Sequence record: PQ900155.1
DNA length: 48,021 bases
Reading direction: 5' to 3' (one strand)
Source of the DNA: Escherichia phage vB_Eco_CWW26
The notes under the pieces are model-generated. The model ran no database searches. It was not told the origin of the DNA and saw only the letters and a list, made by a program, of their open reading frames with translations. A program made the translations under genes and the position numbers. Shown here one piece after another: positions 2,265 through 24,423 of the stretch (within the stretch, counting starts at the first letter, position 1; each line of letters starts with the position of its first letter).

Positions 2265-3674
2265 ATGGCTAAGGCTGCTAAAACAAACCTTCATCTCATG
2301 CCAGCTACAACAACCGACGGGCTGGTAAACGTCGTATCTGGTCTCGGAACGTGGAAAGCAAAACGCTCTCACAACGCGTTCCAGTATGCCGCGCTGTCCA
2401 ACTGGCAACAACTTGACGCAGCTTACCAGACTAACTGGCTGGCTCGTCAGATTGTGGAAATACCTGCCGAAGACATGTGTCGTGAGTGGCGCACTATCAA
2501 GTGCAAGGAAGCTGATGACATCCGTATCGAGGAGGACCGACTGATGATACCTGCCGTTGTACAGGAGGCTGTCACATGGGCGCGTCTGTACGGTGGTGGT
2601 GGTATTCTCATGCTGACCGGTCAGGACCTGTCAAAGCCGCTCGACGTGCGCCGTATTCGTAAAGGTGATTTGAAGCGTTGTATCGTGTTTGACCGTCATG
2701 ATATGTCACCTCTCACCATGAACACCTGGGACATTCTGGCACCTAATTACATGATGCCGGAGTATTACACCATTACTGGTGGTGGACAACAAATCCACTG
2801 GACCCATTTTGCGCGTTTCAATGGTAAGCGTTTGCCGCGTCGCCAGATGGTCCAGACTCAGGGATGGGGTGACAGTGAGTTACGCGTGTGCCTCGATGAC
2901 ATCATGGACATGGTTGCGTCGAAGGATGGCATCGCGGAACTGATGCAGGAAGCAAACGTTGATGTGGTCAAGCGTGAAGGGTTGTCCGATGAGTTAGCCA
3001 GTGACCAGGATGACGCGATTGTGTCGCGTTACACTCTGTTCAGTCAGATGAAGTCACTGGTGCAAATGGCCCTGCTGGACGGTGACGAGTCATACGAACG
3101 TAAGACGCTCGACCTGGGCGGCGTTGCACCGGTGCTTGAGACGTTCATGACGTGGATTAGTGGTGCAGCTGACATTCCTGTCACGCGCCTGTTCGGTACT
3201 TCAGCCAAAGGTTTAAACGCCACGGGTGAAGGGGACATGAACAACTATAACAACTCCATCCGTTCTAAACAGTTGACACAAGTTGACCCGGGGTTGCGCC
3301 AGCTTGATGAGGTGCTGGTACGTAGCGCACTGGGTTACTGGCCTGACGACTTCAACTATGTGTGGAATCCACTCGCACAGCCCAATGAGTTACAGATTGC
3401 ACAGGCCGCTAAAACACGCGCTGATAAGGACATGTTGTATCTCGCAGAAGGTGTTATCACCGTGTCACAGGTGCAGCGCAATCTGGAAGCCGCCGAAGAG
3501 TATCAGTTTGAAGACGGTCAGATTGATGAGCAGTCAGAGACTGAGAAAGAAATGTCCACTGTGCAACGCCCTGAGCCTGACGAGCAGACCACGGACGCAT
3601 TCTGGATACGTTACAATGGGTATGTGGCTGACGGACTGTCGCACGATGAGATAATGGCAAAACTGGCCCAGTAA
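2265..3674 (+). CDS. portal protein (putative)
   Basis: 469-aa ORF starting 3 bp after terL stop; size and position typical of portal. No motif verified. Confidence 0.55.
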   Translation: MAKAAKTNLHLMPATTTDGLVNVVSGLGTWKAKRSHNAFQYAALSNWQQLDAAYQTNWLARQIVEIPAEDMCREWRTIKCKEADDIRIEEDRLMIPAVVQEAVTWARLYGGGGILMLTGQDLSKPLDVRRIRKGDLKRCIVFDRHDMSPLTMNTWDILAPNYMMPEYYTITGGGQQIHWTHFARFNGKRLPRRQMVQTQGWGDSELRVCLDDIMDMVASKDGIAELMQEANVDVVKREGLSDELASDQDDAIVSRYTLFSQMKSLVQMALLDGDESYERKTLDLGGVAPVLETFMTWISGAADIPVTRLFGTSAKGLNATGEGDMNNYNNSIRSKQLTQVDPGLRQLDEVLVRSALGYWPDDFNYVWNPLAQPNELQIAQAAKTRADKDMLYLAEGVITVSQVQRNLEAAEEYQFEDGQIDEQSETEKEMSTVQRPEPDEQTTDAFWIRYNGYVADGLSHDEIMAKLAQ

Positions 3675-3688
3675 CGGGCCAGTTTGGT

Positions 3689-3811
3689 TTATTTCTGCTT
3701 CGTAAAGCCACCACAACCACACTTCGGACACATCGTGTAACTCACGCCTTTCTTTTCAACCCGGTCAAGATGGTGATGCTCATGCTTGCATGCTACGCAG
3801 ATGATAATCAT
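3689..3811 (-). CDS. small zinc-ribbon-like protein (40 aa)
   Basis: Hand-translated MIIICVACKHEHHHLDRVEKKGVSYTMCPKCGCGGFTKQK; start overlaps stop of upstream gene (TAATG coupling). Below the 60-aa ORF-track cutoff. Confidence 0.3.
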   Translation of the reverse strand: MIIICVACKHEHHHLDRVEKKGVSYTMCPKCGCGGFTKQK

Positions 3812-4419
3812 TAATCCTCCAGCTTCACGCCGGGAATTTTACCGGCTGCGATGGCGTCGTAGATATGTTTAGCAATGTGCTTGATTTGCTCATTATTGTT
3901 GCTAATTAACTGACTAGCTTTTCCTATCTCGGAAATAGTCTCATCACGCTTGCGCTCTGCTTCGGTGCGGAGTGGGCGGAATCCGCAAACATTACCAACA
4001 AAAAATGGCTGACTTCCGTCAGATGGTTTAAGGCATGCACCATCGCCATCATAAACAAGGACAGTTACTGGAAGCCAATCATGGTCGCCGCTTGCTAGCC
4101 ACTCACACTCGACACCAACCGGCGGAAGACCTTCTCCGTTCCATGCTGGCTTTTGAGATTCGGCTAGTGCTGCTTTGTATTGCCAATAGGTCACTATCGA
4201 CTCCTTGTGGTCGTAAGATAAAGGCATGACCCATTCACCACACCAGAAATACATAAGGCTATTCCCTGTGTGATGTTTCCATGATAATCCATCATAGTGG
4301 GGATCATTCGTGTCCCATACACACAGGGAACCGTCATTATCTTGAGTAATTGACAGCGCACCCTCCGGCCAACCGCCACGCTTTGGTAATTCCTGACACA
4401 ATAGTTCAAGTAATGTCAT
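3811..4419 (-). CDS. hypothetical protein (202 aa)
   Basis: ORF track; second gene of a leftward cassette driven by the promoter at 4646-4674; 4-bp overlap with upstream gene. Confidence 0.5.
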   Translation of the reverse strand: MTLLELLCQELPKRGGWPEGALSITQDNDGSLCVWDTNDPHYDGLSWKHHTGNSLMYFWCGEWVMPLSYDHKESIVTYWQYKAALAESQKPAWNGEGLPPVGVECEWLASGDHDWLPVTVLVYDGDGACLKPSDGSQPFFVGNVCGFRPLRTEAERKRDETISEIGKASQLISNNNEQIKHIAKHIYDAIAAGKIPGVKLED

Positions 4420-21094: not shown

Positions 21095-22519
21095 ATGGAT
21101 TTGCGCCAGTATGAGATACTCATTGATACAAAGAATTTCATCACTCAGTCGTACCCGATGCTCCGGTGCTCGTTCGATGTAACAACGTATACCGGCGACA
21201 GTCTGAGTACCTGTGAGTTTCGCTTGTGGAACCTCGCACCGACAACGAAGATTGAACCTAATCAGACCGTTGTTTTTCGCGCCGGGTATCAGTCGCGCAT
21301 GGGTCAGATTTTTACTGGATTTGTTACCAACGTTTTCACTATTCGTGACGGTACTGACATTATTACACGTGTGACGTGTCGCAGCGGTAGCAACGTGCTC
21401 GACGGTGGGACAACGAGTGCAAGTTTCGGTAAGGGGGTGACATTGTTTGACGTCCTGACCAGCCTCGCACAGGACTGGTCAAAACCGCTATATCTTGTCA
21501 ATAGCGTGGACAAATTTACCTCTATTGTCATGGTTAGCGGCTACAACGTCAGCTCCGACATTAGTAAAGAACTCGATATTCTGGCCAAAGCGTATGGCTT
21601 CGAATGGCATCTGTACGCTGGACAGGTGTTTGTCGGATTCCCGTCTGATGACCGTAAAGCCACACCTGTTAAAATCAGTTCCGCCACCGGGATGATTGAT
21701 GCTCCCACGCTTCACGGCGGTATTGATGGTGTATTCTGTGACGTTAAAATGCGTCTTGACCCCCGTATGACACCCGCATCGGTGCTCAATATCGAGTCAA
21801 AATGGCCTAAATTCGATTTCGGAGCAGTGGAGTTCCAGACAACCGTCGACGCTAAACTGGAAGGTGACTGGAACGTTCAGACCATTCAACACACTGGCGA
21901 TACACATGGTCCCGACTGGTACACATTTGTCAAAGCTGTGCGCGCCGGGTCAATGGATACCACCACGGCAAATGCTGACGTTGGTAATCGTCTTATTTAC
22001 GGTCGCGTGGGTGTGCAGGGTGAGGATGCCAGTCAGCAACAGGATTTCCGTACTGAGGTGCGTAAACTTGGGCAAAGTCTGGGTATCAGTCCTAACTGGA
22101 TTATGGCTGTAATCTCTGCCGAGTCTAACTTCAATCCACAGTCAAAGAACAGCAAATCCGGCGCGGTAGGACTGATTCAGTTTACTAATGCCGGTTGGAC
22201 GAGTGCGTTTCAGAGTAAGTACGGTCGCAATAAAAATATCATCCTGTCAATGACTGCAGCCGAACAGGTGAGGGGTCCGATTACTGATTATCTCAATCAA
22301 TATAAAGGGCGTTACAAGACAATGGGGGATGTATACATGGCGGTATTCAGTCCGGCATTTATCGGTAAACCTTCAACAACCGTGATGTACACGTCACCGT
22401 CCAAAGCGTACAATCAGAATGCAGGGCTTGACACGGAGCATAAAGGTTACATTACTGTCGGTGACGTGTGGCGGCGTGTTGAGGAACGATTCAGACAAGG
22501 TAAGGCGTACATGTTATGA
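21095..22519 (+). CDS. tail protein with lytic transglycosylase (SLT) domain
   Basis: C-terminal AVISAESNFNPQSKNSKSGAVGLIQFTNAGW matches the SLT signature (E-S...GLMQ). Confidence 0.55.
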   Translation: MDLRQYEILIDTKNFITQSYPMLRCSFDVTTYTGDSLSTCEFRLWNLAPTTKIEPNQTVVFRAGYQSRMGQIFTGFVTNVFTIRDGTDIITRVTCRSGSNVLDGGTTSASFGKGVTLFDVLTSLAQDWSKPLYLVNSVDKFTSIVMVSGYNVSSDISKELDILAKAYGFEWHLYAGQVFVGFPSDDRKATPVKISSATGMIDAPTLHGGIDGVFCDVKMRLDPRMTPASVLNIESKWPKFDFGAVEFQTTVDAKLEGDWNVQTIQHTGDTHGPDWYTFVKAVRAGSMDTTTANADVGNRLIYGRVGVQGEDASQQQDFRTEVRKLGQSLGISPNWIMAVISAESNFNPQSKNSKSGAVGLIQFTNAGWTSAFQSKYGRNKNIILSMTAAEQVRGPITDYLNQYKGRYKTMGDVYMAVFSPAFIGKPSTTVMYTSPSKAYNQNAGLDTEHKGYITVGDVWRRVEERFRQGKAYML

Positions 22520-23166
22520 GTTTAATTAACCTTCTGGTAAAGCGCGGTCCACAGCTTGGGTCGCTTCAGTTCGATGCCGTCCTGTCTGATGACCTTGATG
22601 CCAGCGTGGATATCGTGCAGTACCCCATTGAGACAGGTACGCCAATTGCAGACCACATTATCTATCAGCCTATTCGTTACACGATGACAGGTGCAGTATC
22701 GAACAACCCGTTGAAAGTTAGTATCACCGATTTCACCGGGGCATTGACAAATCTTGTCGATGACAATCCGTTCATTGCAGCGGGTGCCGGTCTGTTCGCG
22801 GGGTGGTTGAGCGGCTCAAATGAAACTCGCTCCAGTACGACACTGAATACTTTGCTCGATTTCATGTACTCCGGTCAGGTATTCACAGTGGATACGGGCG
22901 AAATTACGCTGAACAATATGGTCATTCAGCGTATTGGGCGCTCTAAAGACCCGGAGAATGAGAACGGATTGATATTTGTTGCTGAACTACAGCAGATTGT
23001 CACGCTTGACCGCGTGGCGAACGGTTCACAACCGGCACAATATCAGCTGAACAGTAACGACGTTTCCAGCACGTCCATATCAGGACTGATTGAGCGTGGT
23101 TATATCAATGTGAAGACAGCTGCAACGAATGTTGCCGACCAGGTTACGACACTTTTGGATTTGTAA
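22516..23166 (+). CDS. hypothetical tail / baseplate hub protein
   Basis: ORF track; last gene before the non-coding island. Confidence 0.4.
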   Translation: MSLINLLVKRGPQLGSLQFDAVLSDDLDASVDIVQYPIETGTPIADHIIYQPIRYTMTGAVSNNPLKVSITDFTGALTNLVDDNPFIAAGAGLFAGWLSGSNETRSSTTLNTLLDFMYSGQVFTVDTGEITLNNMVIQRIGRSKDPENENGLIFVAELQQIVTLDRVANGSQPAQYQLNSNDVSSTSISGLIERGYINVKTAATNVADQVTTLLDL

Positions 23167-23193
23167 AAAAAAAAAAGCCCCGTACTCCGGGGC
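23165..23193 (-). terminator. rho-independent terminator for leftward transcription
   Basis: Hairpin GCCCCG-TACTC-CGGGGC (23177-23193) preceded on + strand by A12, so on the minus strand it is followed by U12. Confidence 0.6.
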
Positions 23194-23677
23194 AAACATA
23201 CTGAAGCGCAATGGAGAGAGAGTATGGTTTACAGTTGTGGCGGCCGGTGCTGATCTCCGGCTTGTATATGGACTACCCGTCGTCGCCATGGTGAGCCATT
23301 ACCTCACCATCTAGCTGATAAGTTAGCGCATCAGCCCGCGCATTCACCACAACTCTAAACCATCGTCGCAACTGTTGTTATGTTTCACAACATTACCCCA
23401 GTCACTTACGGCTTACCCGTCAGCAAGATTGGACCACCTCCTCGGGGGTTACAACAGGAAAGAGCATTCAGTTGTACCTGCCAGTTGTGCCACTAGGAAA
23501 CGCTTTCGCAGACCGTTAAGCTCTTTGCAAGTTCTTTAATGCTCTTACCTGTTGTATTGGTCGAACCGCCACGGTGACCAACCGCATTCGTGCATGCCTG
23601 GCTACACATTCCGGCTACCCGCTGGTGCGAAGGAATAGGACACCCCGGACCGCTAAGACACATGTGCTATATGCCTG
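23194..23677 (-). ncRNA. putative leftward non-coding transcript (~480 nt)
   Basis: Region has no ORF of 60 aa or more; bracketed by a leftward promoter (23685-23713) and terminator; several hairpins. Class not recognised. Confidence 0.25.
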
Positions 23678-23684
23678 TGAATAA

Positions 23685-23713
23685 ATAATTACATTGTTTG
23701 ACGTGATTGTCAA
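23685..23713 (-). promoter_or_regulatory. sigma70-like promoter, variant palindromic -35 (leftward)
   Basis: Minus strand TTGACA-atcacgtcaaacaatgt-AATTAT; + strand palindrome TTGACGTGATTGTCAA 23698-23713; weak -10. Confidence 0.35.
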
Positions 23714-23748
23714 TAGTATACTTGACATTATTTTCACAGGAGGGCGAC

Positions 23749-24423
23749 ATGACCGACATTAACCAGCGCCGCTCGTTTTTACAGAACGTCACCAATGACA
23801 CGTTTTTCGAGAACATGAAGGACGTGTACACGTGCATCCCGGGTTACGTGCTGACGTTCGACCCGGACACACAGCGCGCACAAATTCAACTGGGAATCAC
23901 CCGGACTGATGATGTCGCTAAAACTACATTTGACCCGCCGCCCATCGTGGACGTTCCAGTAAGTTTCCCGGGCGATGACTTCGTACTGGAATTTGCCGTC
24001 AATCCGGGTTGTGAAGGTATGGTACATTTCAGTCAACGTTGCATTGATGGATGGAAGCAGACCGGCGGCATTGCTGCCAATCCAGTTAAACGCTTTCACC
24101 ACAAACAGGACGCAATGTTTGTACCTGGAATTCGTTCGCTCGATAACCTGATTGCAAGTTTTTCCAACGATGGGATACGTCTGCGTAATGCCGACGCGTC
24201 ACAGCACGTCTGGTTAAAGGGTGACGGTTCGTGCATAATGGCTAACGGGAACGGCAACGTTCAACTTCTTGCAAACGGCACGGTGAGTATCAATGGCGTG
24301 ACCATTGATAAAGACGGGAATATCACCGCTCTGAATTCTCTGGTGCTGGATGGCAAAGAACTCAACGGTCACACTCATGGCGGCGTTGCTTCCGGTGGTG
24401 CTAATACGGGGCCGAATAACTGA
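23749..24423 (+). CDS. baseplate spike / gpV-like protein (putative)
   Basis: C-terminal LDGKELNGHTHGGVASGGANTGP; ATG at 23749 with AGGAGGG SD. Confidence 0.45.
   Translation: MTDINQRRSFLQNVTNDTFFENMKDVYTCIPGYVLTFDPDTQRAQIQLGITRTDDVAKTTFDPPPIVDVPVSFPGDDFVLEFAVNPGCEGMVHFSQRCIDGWKQTGGIAANPVKRFHHKQDAMFVPGIRSLDNLIASFSNDGIRLRNADASQHVWLKGDGSCIMANGNGNVQLLANGTVSINGVTIDKDGNITALNSLVLDGKELNGHTHGGVASGGANTGPNN

Follow-up and report, generated by a model that had tools for sequence, protein, structure and literature searches.

A predicted modular non-coding RNA of Escherichia phage ZCEC13 with a 16S rRNA helix 11-like arm on a widespread phage RNA motif

The non-coding island at positions 23167-23748 of the window (the whole 48,021-nt stretch of DNA analysed here, which is identical to the complete genome of Escherichia phage ZCEC13; ON086804 / NC_071140; genus Jedunavirus) is predicted to be a stand-alone minus-strand gene for a non-coding RNA of ~510 nt, running from ~23678 to 23166. 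The RNA is predicted to consist of modules that fold independently, A, B, C, D and a tail, and that are exchanged among phages. Module D is formed by a large RNA motif without a matching model in Rfam 15 (motif D), and in ZCEC13 the variable arm of this motif is a bona fide, near-exact copy of helix 11 of bacterial 16S ribosomal RNA (rRNA). Judging from sequence comparison, we lean towards a trans-acting structured RNA whose core would display the arm, with the arm of ZCEC13 as a putative decoy of the site bound by ribosomal protein uS17.

A minus-strand transcription unit with a mosaic interior

The unit is delimited by two minus-strand signals that had already been picked out in the original prediction, made from the DNA letters alone. 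The σ70 promoter (23685..23713) comprises TTGACA at 23713-23708, a 17-nt spacer and an extended -10 element, TG-T-AATTAT, at 23693-23685, in which AATTAT occupies 23690-23685 with TG ahead of it. It matched at 10/12 positions and was the top site in a 3-kb scan; transcription is predicted to start near A23678. Promoter-like sites as a class were not enriched over shuffled sequence (5 vs 3.9 +/- 1.9), so such sites alone prove little. Every JD001-like relative has the promoter, TATTGACA-N17-TGTAATTAT, including those with a replaced inner sequence. The intrinsic terminator (23166..23193) consists of the hairpin GCCCCG-GAGUA-CGGGGC at 23193-23177 followed by U12 to 23166, and the unit ends in a terminator in all JD001-like relatives, most of which retain the window's stem and vary the loop; L051, L062 and L063 have a different terminator hairpin instead. 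The fold of the 515-nt minus-strand RNA beat 100/100 dinucleotide shuffles (z = -3.26), and the real evidence beyond chance for this RNA is comparative rather than drawn from single-sequence folding. Covariation in relatives, a check that the original prediction had proposed, was found in the helices of modules A and D, and with the conserved promoter and terminator it supports the leftward non-coding unit with conserved hairpins that had been suggested. These covarying helices, the retained promoter and terminator and the lack of a conserved open reading frame (ORF) do not fit the remnant of a decayed gene, which had been named as the finding that would overturn that suggestion.

Between promoter and terminator, the sequence is a mosaic across the JD001-like relatives. 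The majority hold module A and the tail only (~260 nt), some hold A, B and C, and a few have the full set at ~80% identity, leaving module A as the sole module found in every relative. Module A, the 5' domain (23556..23678, minus strand), was defined by sequence pattern and covariation; it comprises hairpin A1 (23676-23656), the GCGGUCCG helix with CGG..GCCG around an invariant GGUAGCCGGAAUGUG, and a T-loop-like hairpin, GGUCACCGUGGCGGUUCGACC. Its invariant pattern, GGTAGCCGGAATGTG, was present in at least 120 viral contigs (all copy counts, here and below, are lower bounds). In an alignment of 24 sequences, five helices had 97.8% of cells paired and 8 pairs changed on both sides, and the covariation score was reached by 0/500 shuffles. 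Several U-G/G-U pairs of module A are invariant or dominant and would be A-C if read from the other strand; because the G-U pairs of modules A and D are valid on the minus strand only, we take the structure to be read on that strand. Motif D lay no more than 900 nt downstream in 20/106 distinct copies of module A.

The remaining modules are all read on the minus strand. Module B (23451..23555) is a long hairpin whose base is conserved (ACAACAGGUAAGAGCAUU / AAUGCUCUUUCCUGUUGU) and whose tip varies; in other phages the base is retained under different tips, and the module is 94% identical to unannotated DNA in phage HK620 and E. coli prophages. Module C (23355..23450) is also found on its own, in L051, L062 and L115 and in phages of Salmonella, Proteus and Hafnia, and holds the first of two hairpins quoted in the original prediction, TGTTGT-N8-ACAACA (23373-23392 on the plus strand). 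Minimum-free-energy z scores were -3.44 for module B and -2.52 for module C. Module D (23233..23354), the four-way-junction motif, is defined by covariation and by the covariance model R1 described below, and contains the second quoted hairpin, ATGGTGAG-N7-CTCACCAT (23288-23310 on the plus strand). The tail (23194..23232) is unstructured, G-poor and rich in C, U and A (GUAAACCAUACUCUCUCUCCAUUGCGCUUCAGUAUGUUU), and is conserved among the JD001-like relatives; directly before the terminator, UCAGUAU(G/U)UUUG is common to the window and the lambdoid version.

Modules B and D also occur together, at 94% identity, in the P22-like phage HK620 and in many E. coli prophages, where they lie between the Q antiterminator/pR' and the holin gene and are oriented along late transcription. 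Parts of the 556-nt RNA matched 1,599/5,426 complete E. coli genomes, with modules B and D giving the best matches; annotation was 'none' among the matches listed. Phage swi2 (L033) has its own promoter followed by B, D, a tRNA-Met gene and a terminator. The B and D pair was located at 5990-6200 of L001 (an E. coli HS prophage) and at 3990-4200 of L002 (HK620), with terminator-like hairpins on both sides. In a Stx2c-converting phage (L520, 2506-2642), motif D is immediately downstream of a cI-like ORF. The motif places of L001, L002 and L520 carried no annotation, among the matches listed.

The interval between Q/pR' and holin is a known 'moron' site for small RNAs (PMC4104026, PMC7547250). 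The modules of HK620 and the E. coli prophages share it with lambda 6S RNA, StxS and AgvB/AsxR, whereas those are base-pairing RNAs of 50-200 nt or simple leaders with other sequences, and the Rfam models of AgvB and AsxR did not match the island RNA. An alternative that draws on this company is a base-pairing regulatory RNA, in which the CU/CA-rich tail and the terminator would act as an Hfq/ProQ-type seed for mRNAs or as a sponge for a host small RNA (sRNA). Such an RNA would be expected to look much like the 3' end seen here, a G-poor single strand and then a terminator with its U-run (U12), kept even by relatives that hold module A and the tail alone, and lambdoid prophages do carry short anti-sRNAs downstream of pR' (PMC4104026). 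It would, however, leave ~450 nt of covarying structure and the helix 11 copy unexplained, the tails of unrelated motif D copies are alike in composition only, and no target was identified, though no search aimed at one was made, so that we consider this explanation improbable.

Motif D and its likeness to tRNA

In the window, motif D is closed on the minus strand by the 10-bp stem P1 (23354-23345 with 23242-23233). This is followed by J1/2, AAU (23344-23342), by stem P2, GCGC/GCGC (23341-23338 with 23329-23326), with its loop L2, GGGCUGAU (23337-23330), by the variable arm (23325-23262), and by stem P4, GCCGG/CCGGC (23261-23257 with 23247-23243), with its loop L4, AGAUCAGCA (23256-23248). The anatomy across copies is a P1 of 6-14 bp and any sequence, AAU, a P2 hairpin of GCGC / AGGCUGAU / GCGC, a variable arm of 9-265 nt, N-A-(A/U), and a P4 hairpin of GCCGG / AGAUCAGCR / CCGGC that leads straight into the 3' strand of P1. 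The pattern TACAAGCCGGAGATCAGC was found at 34 viral loci, AATGYGCRGGCTGATGCRC at 120 or more, and a pattern with both loops left free at no fewer than 120. The exact 19-mer AATGCGCAGGCTGATGCGC was detected across several bacterial classes, in 120 or more species; most belong to the Gamma-, Beta- and Alphaproteobacteria (such as Pseudomonas, Xanthomonas, Burkholderia, Thauera and Rhizobium), with a few Bacteroidota and metagenome-assembled genomes of other phyla as well. Four scans pooled gave at least 260 distinct copies from phages and prophages.

Covariation was evaluated in 118 copies aligned with the arm trimmed out, against shuffle controls that ignore phylogeny. Changes on both sides were seen in 10/10 pairs of P1, 4/5 pairs of P4 and one pair of P2, amounting to 383 cells against 127 +/- 8 in the shuffles, none of which (0/500) reached the observed score; 92% of cells were paired compared to 29-50% when partners were slid. 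Since the 118 copies had been chosen partly by P1 pairing, the test was repeated on loci found by the P2 pattern alone, with P4 located without a P1 criterion. In this set, at least 6/7 P1 pairs formed in 44/50 distinct strand pairs, compared to 16% when the 3' strands were reassigned to other loci. L2 is AGGCUGAU in 253/260 copies (the window copy being the GGGCUGAU given above), and its GCUGAU is complementary to AUCAGC of L4 over 6 bp, with both loops nearly invariant. Among substitutions, only C to U is frequent (15 cases), and it leaves a G-U pair in place. A kissing contact between L2 and L4 is therefore a prediction with which the loops are consistent, not one that they prove. The minimum-free-energy fold of module D instead nests an L2:L4 helix; this is disfavoured by the covariation of P2 and P4, which favours the form with two hairpins and kissing loops.

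The covariance model R1, built from the trimmed alignment, had one hit only in the window (23354-23233, 50.4 bits, E = 4.8e-11), with the window copy itself included in the seed alignment, and also matched the copies of HK620, E. coli HS and the Stx2c phage, among others. At Rfam gathering thresholds, the whole window was without a match and ten related loci gave two tRNAs only. The original prediction, which could assign no RNA family by eye and proposed an Rfam scan, thus holds at those thresholds. In E-value mode, modules A, B and D likewise had no match except over one stretch, hit by the small-subunit rRNA (SSU) model. The quoted ATGGTGAG...CTCACCAT hairpin is the tip of the helix 11 copy.

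Neighbouring genes of motif D were nearly always co-oriented with it across 348 loci. A cI-like repressor lay upstream in 63 of these (18%), often with RecE/RecT downstream; Q/NinG lay upstream in 42, and lysis genes downstream in 47. A conserved partner protein encoded beside the motif was considered and rejected, the neighbours being ordinary genes of phages, for cI-like repressor, Q, NinG, holin, endolysin, Rz, RecT, RecE and terminase. Antisense RNAs are known from such places: c4 of phages P1 and P7 and CI of P4 are matured by RNase P. Like motif D, these are phage-encoded RNAs of the immunity/early region with a closing stem and two hairpins. The loops of c4 and CI, however, pair with targets on the same transcript and differ between heteroimmune phages, whereas those of motif D are invariant across unrelated phages and complementary to each other, and the Rfam c4 model gave no match.

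The dimensions of motif D recall those of a tRNA, whose cloverleaf has a 7-bp acceptor stem, a 4-bp D stem and a 5-bp T stem, the last abutting the acceptor. Pairs 1-7 of P1 were at least 93% paired and the next three 68%, 46% and 27%, and this decay after pair 7 indicates a closing stem of typically 7-8 bp. The 4-bp P2 and the 5-bp P4, which adjoins P1 directly, are in keeping with cloverleaf stem lengths; A, C and C are each found at ~53% at positions 8-10 past P4. Motif D has a four-way junction, a ~7-bp closing stem that passes directly into a 5-bp hairpin, and a 4-bp hairpin, all as in tRNA, and the predicted loop-loop contact falls where D and T loops meet, with the variable arm in the position of the anticodon arm. 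It also sits in phage tRNA arrays with tRNA-like spacing. All tRNA genes near the motif were co-oriented with it (51/51, and 44/44 in a second count, within 600-700 nt), the next tRNA downstream followed after 5, 5, 6, 8, 12 or 20 nt, and in L288 the motif begins 0 nt after a tRNA-Gly. The differences from tRNA are that neither loop follows the D or T consensus, that the loops would meet in a Watson-Crick helix of 6 bp, that an anticodon arm is missing, that P1 frequently exceeds 7 bp, and that CCA shows no conservation. Motif D resembles tRNA in shape and is not a tRNA.

Such a likeness could mean that module D is a tRNA-like punctuation mark or stabiliser, read by RNase P, RNase E or 3' exonucleases that would cut or protect the neighbouring RNAs, with no function in trans. 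The neighbouring RNAs in question, besides tRNAs with their array spacing, are the leaders of early-left and late operons, with loci downstream of cI-like repressors and upstream of RecE/RecT and others between Q/NinG and the lysis genes. But the ZCEC13 unit runs antisense to the genes beside it and stops at a strong terminator, leaving nothing to process; an ordinary tRNA would suffice for the task, and the invariant loops would go unexplained. We give this explanation little credence.

Some apparent tRNA signals near the motif were set aside. Nested tRNAs in the arms were dropped as an idea, two apparent tRNA matches being mis-detections of P4 with the tRNAs placed just downstream of the motif. 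An ARAGORN 'tmRNA' at 3200-3574 of L033, with tag peptide AKAVRLRKCSFRCGECAG, was a false call across B, D and the real tRNA-Met. T-arm-like hairpins (GGTTCGAnTCC on a 4-5-bp stem) were seen inside variable parts, namely the B tip of L010/L033 and the arms of L087, L100, L114 and L170; no tRNA was predicted at any of these hairpins.

A 16S helix 11 copy in the variable arm and its possible role

The variable arm of module D in the window is formed by the helix 11 copy (23276..23322, minus strand). In E-value mode, the Rfam SSU model aligned to 47 nt at 23322-23276 with every pair kept (33.4 bits, E = 1.6e-7). Compared to positions 242-282 of E. coli rrsH, 33/40 nt were identical, 10-12 standard deviations above shuffles (z = 11.8), and a compensatory change from UA to AU preserves two pairs. 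The seven mismatches to E. coli in 40 nt argue against recent capture from an E. coli-type host. Nor does the arm look like a fragment of a 16S gene, its 33.4 bits lying below the gathering score of 50 and its flanks being unrelated to 16S. Elsewhere in the island, modules A, B, D-5' and D-3' had z scores of -0.1 to 0.5 against E. coli 16S, and module C scored z = 2.1, with its best local match, a weak one, at a colinear place (92-132). Colinearity of the entire RNA with the 16S 5' domain was rejected as unproven, helix 11 alone being significant; against 23S rRNA the island RNA showed zero significant similarity.

The element AGCTAG[N]TGGTGAGGTAATGGCTCACC was found in 90 viral contigs, none of them a 16S gene, on at least four RNA scaffolds. 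The first setting is the motif D arm, in the window and in L013, L465, L527, L547, L566 and L592; the second is a Y-shaped 'scaffold 2' with a covarying closing stem, in ~75 contigs of 45-50 kb; the third and fourth are those of L569 and L572. Among 14 distinct 47-mers, the central 35 nt were almost invariant and three outer pairs covaried (CUU/GGG, GUU/GGC, CCU/GGG, GGU/GCC). Cultured carriers are Klebsiella phages SBP and SCNJ1-Y, Yersinia phage vB_YenM_30.14, Shewanella phage Y11 and Streptomyces phages Omar and Stella. Scaffold 2 (L528 7520-7700 on the minus strand, L610 ~1490-1610, L608 ~1490-1600 and ~75 IMG/VR contigs) joins the helix 11 copy, in a version close to the Rfam bacterial SSU consensus, to a second hairpin within a closing stem, AAUGCUUUGG / CCAAAGCAUU, that covaries. 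In the Yersinia and Shewanella phages and the ~75 contigs it adjoins an ORF start, 10-40 nt upstream and near the ribosome-binding site; in L528 that ORF encodes a Cys-rich protein of 212 aa (phrog_27543, function unassigned), and a motif D copy lies 120 nt upstream. By its position, scaffold 2 looks like a 5' untranslated region of the ribosomal protein leader type.

In Omar (NC_054662 ~48630-48750; L607 550-667, plus strand), the bacterial SSU model aligned to 118 nt with 62.6 bits (E = 2e-17), above the gathering score of 50, over model positions 106-311 with helices 8-10 replaced by 8 nt. By this alignment the Omar stretch is a miniature 16S h7-h11-h12 sub-domain, with an h7 stub, in non-coding DNA near the genome end. 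A similar stretch was seen in Stella. Moraxella phage Mcat16 (KR093640; L609, ~3550-3900) holds more than 300 nt of genuine 16S-like sequence whose flanks match 16S too, which is probably contamination or chimeric assembly, and several very short 'phage' records are 16S fragments likewise.

A 16S piece within so variable a region raises the possibility of a DNA-level element or recombination debris, that is, a replication or packaging site, or a hot spot of functionless fragments. The mosaicism among relatives is extreme, an HNH endonuclease gene has been inserted here in BUCT_49532, and several JD001-like records begin exactly at the terminator. Debris would not be expected to show compensation in many helices, G-U pairs that make sense on one strand alone, and a conserved promoter and terminator; nor does it account for an exact 19-mer in so many bacterial species or a helix 11 copy that differs from the host's own sequence. 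We judge this explanation very unlikely indeed.

uS17 interacts with 16S helix 11 (PMC4604426), and its contacts extend to helices 7, 9 and 11 (PMC3359968). The reading that we favour by a small measure is that the island RNA would act in trans as a stable folded particle, in which the junction and kissing-loop core would be a compact scaffold presenting the variable arm; in tRNA arrays, the core could be released by the tRNA-processing enzymes. In ZCEC13, the arm would offer a decoy of the primary binding site of uS17, or of the site of another helix 11 reader, and might titrate that protein, or report on it, during infection. Standing alone, antisense to the adjacent genes and ended by a strong terminator, the unit would have to make an RNA that acts in trans, and the units of both ZCEC13 and swi2 (L033) have their own promoter and terminator with no downstream ORF. 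A cis regulator of the ribosomal protein leader type does not fit the window, where the RNA ends at the terminator and no ORF follows. The layout of a riboswitch was likewise absent from it, with ~40 nt of unstructured spacer between P1 and the terminator and no downstream gene.

Several findings weigh against a displayed uS17 decoy on a tRNA-shaped, kissing-loop scaffold. The P1 of the window copy has 10 bp and no ACC after the stem (CGCCACAACUGUAAACC); ARAGORN found zero tRNA or tmRNA in the window, and the Rfam tRNA model had no match there at E up to 10. The outer L2:L4 pair is mismatched in 15 cases, and there were zero double compensatory changes. When 249 distinct arms were compared to the E. 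coli rrn operon, only the helix 11 type matched, and since most arms are without rRNA likeness, uS17 cannot be the general partner of the motif. The helix 11 copy of scaffold 2 sits in a 5' leader and may act in cis there. Finally, the near-invariance of L2, L4, P2 and P4 across phyla exceeds what a passive scaffold needs, indicating a partner, or an assembly role, for the core itself.

An assembly role is the substance of another explanation, in which L2 and L4 would pair between molecules into dimers, rings or cages, and the function would lie in this particle rather than in the arm. Intermolecular loop pairing builds the ROOL, GOLLD and OLE structures and phi29 pRNA. Perfect complementarity over 6 nt in loops so nearly invariant (253/260) would suit such a particle, as would the phage-borne, modular nature of motif D and its place near tRNAs, which recall GOLLD and ROOL (PMC12286853). 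Sequence cannot separate intra- from intermolecular pairing, however, and the motif is small (~70-120 nt) and unmatched by the Rfam GOLLD and ROOL models, making this, in our estimation, an unlikely account. According to two reports, GOLLD and ROOL are large, ornate, phage-associated non-coding RNAs, often beside tRNA genes, with a conserved core and kissing loops (PMC12286853; PMC5737381). The island RNA is like them in being non-coding, carried by phages and prophages, near tRNAs, and composed of a core and variable parts, a likeness in lifestyle only; it differs in matching none of the Rfam models and in its far smaller conserved core, and the hosts of motif D are mainly Pseudomonadota compared to Firmicutes or rumen and lake taxa.

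The mRNA leaders of ribosomal proteins S4, S8, S15, L1, L20 and others mimic rRNA sites for autoregulation; we know of no natural mimic of the uS17 site. As in these leaders, an rRNA protein-binding site is reproduced outside the ribosome, and scaffold 2 has their position upstream of an ORF start, whereas the putative mimic of ZCEC13 is viral and belongs to a free-standing RNA that lacks an ORF to control. A broader proposal, which we offer tentatively and regard as doubtful, is that phages of Pseudomonadota and Actinobacteria encode copies of the uS17-binding part of the 16S 5' domain, as trans decoys (ZCEC13) or as 5' leaders (scaffold 2), that titrate or sense a primary 30S assembly protein. 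What is copied would be only helix 11 in ZCEC13 and ~90 viral contigs, and the small h7-h11-h12 sub-domain in Omar. In its boldest, speculative form, motif D itself would be a small-scale version of the 16S h7/h11/h12 four-way junction. Close to the junction, the residues GUG/CAC, AAUGCGC and GCCGG/CCGGC then CAC resemble the SSU consensus, by eye only. R1 hits neither E. coli 16S nor the Omar mini-16S, and the idea was rejected except as speculation.

No description of motif D, module A or phage-borne helix 11 copies was found in Rfam 15 or the searchable literature, and literature searches with exact motif strings and on prophage sRNAs, large phage RNAs and tRNA-like phage RNAs returned no description of the motif. 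A published set of over 10,000 candidate structured RNAs from viruses (PMC10690425) may list it anonymously. We found no published transcriptome of a Jedunavirus. To the few widespread structured phage RNAs of unassigned function, module A and motif D would contribute two or more sizeable families, whose copies are spread over unannotated DNA in hundreds of phage contigs and in no fewer than 120 bacterial species. If true, the decoy would be the first example found of an rRNA protein-binding helix copied by a virus into non-coding RNAs of its own. The design of scaffold plus variable arm may also be of practical interest as a natural RNA display scaffold.

Flanking genes, coding capacity and record ends

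The island lies between two plus-strand genes, a 216-aa tail gene (22516-23166, with its stop at 23166) to the left and a baseplate-spike gene (ATG at 23749) to the right. No ORF of 60 aa or more is contained entirely within 23167-23748, as the original prediction had it; two mechanical ORFs, of 69 aa (23080-23289, minus strand) and 61 aa (23129-23314, plus strand), both start inside the upstream tail gene and enter the left edge. The predicted 56-aa Cys-rich ORF exists (23493-23663, minus strand) and, as stated, lacks a Shine-Dalgarno sequence. As a coding candidate it fails, its frame reaching a stop at codon 4 in 27/27 JD001-like relatives because of a 1-nt indel, and for want of conservation it was rejected as a gene. 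RefSeq annotates three 'hypothetical proteins' of 23-32 aa, on both strands, over the RNA gene and within its covarying helices (23273-23371 and 23516-23587, minus strand; 23590-23688, plus strand). These are probably spurious calls, and the public annotation would be corrected accordingly. That small proteins, either the 56-aa ORF or these RefSeq calls, are what the island encodes has in its favour that the ORFs exist mechanically; against it stand the early stop and missing Shine-Dalgarno sequence of the former and the two-stranded placement of the latter within covarying helices, and we see practically no chance of it.

A weaker plus-strand promoter-like site (23707-23734, TTGTCA-16-TATTTT, 9/12) points towards the baseplate-spike gene and overlaps, back to back, with the minus-strand promoter, making a divergent promoter pair possible. 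Several JD001-like records, JX866719 (JD001), MT757392 (KB2), MG197810 (1611E-K2-1) and NC_071128, start or end exactly at the RNA terminator, and record ends near window position ~23177 adjoin the A12/T12 run; the shared ends may mark a true terminus of the phage DNA, a break in assembly at the homopolymer, or a copied convention. In Klebsiella phages BUCT_49532 (NC_071129, 20980-22103) and RCIP0033, an HNH endonuclease gene lies within the homologous RNA region and splits the match in two.

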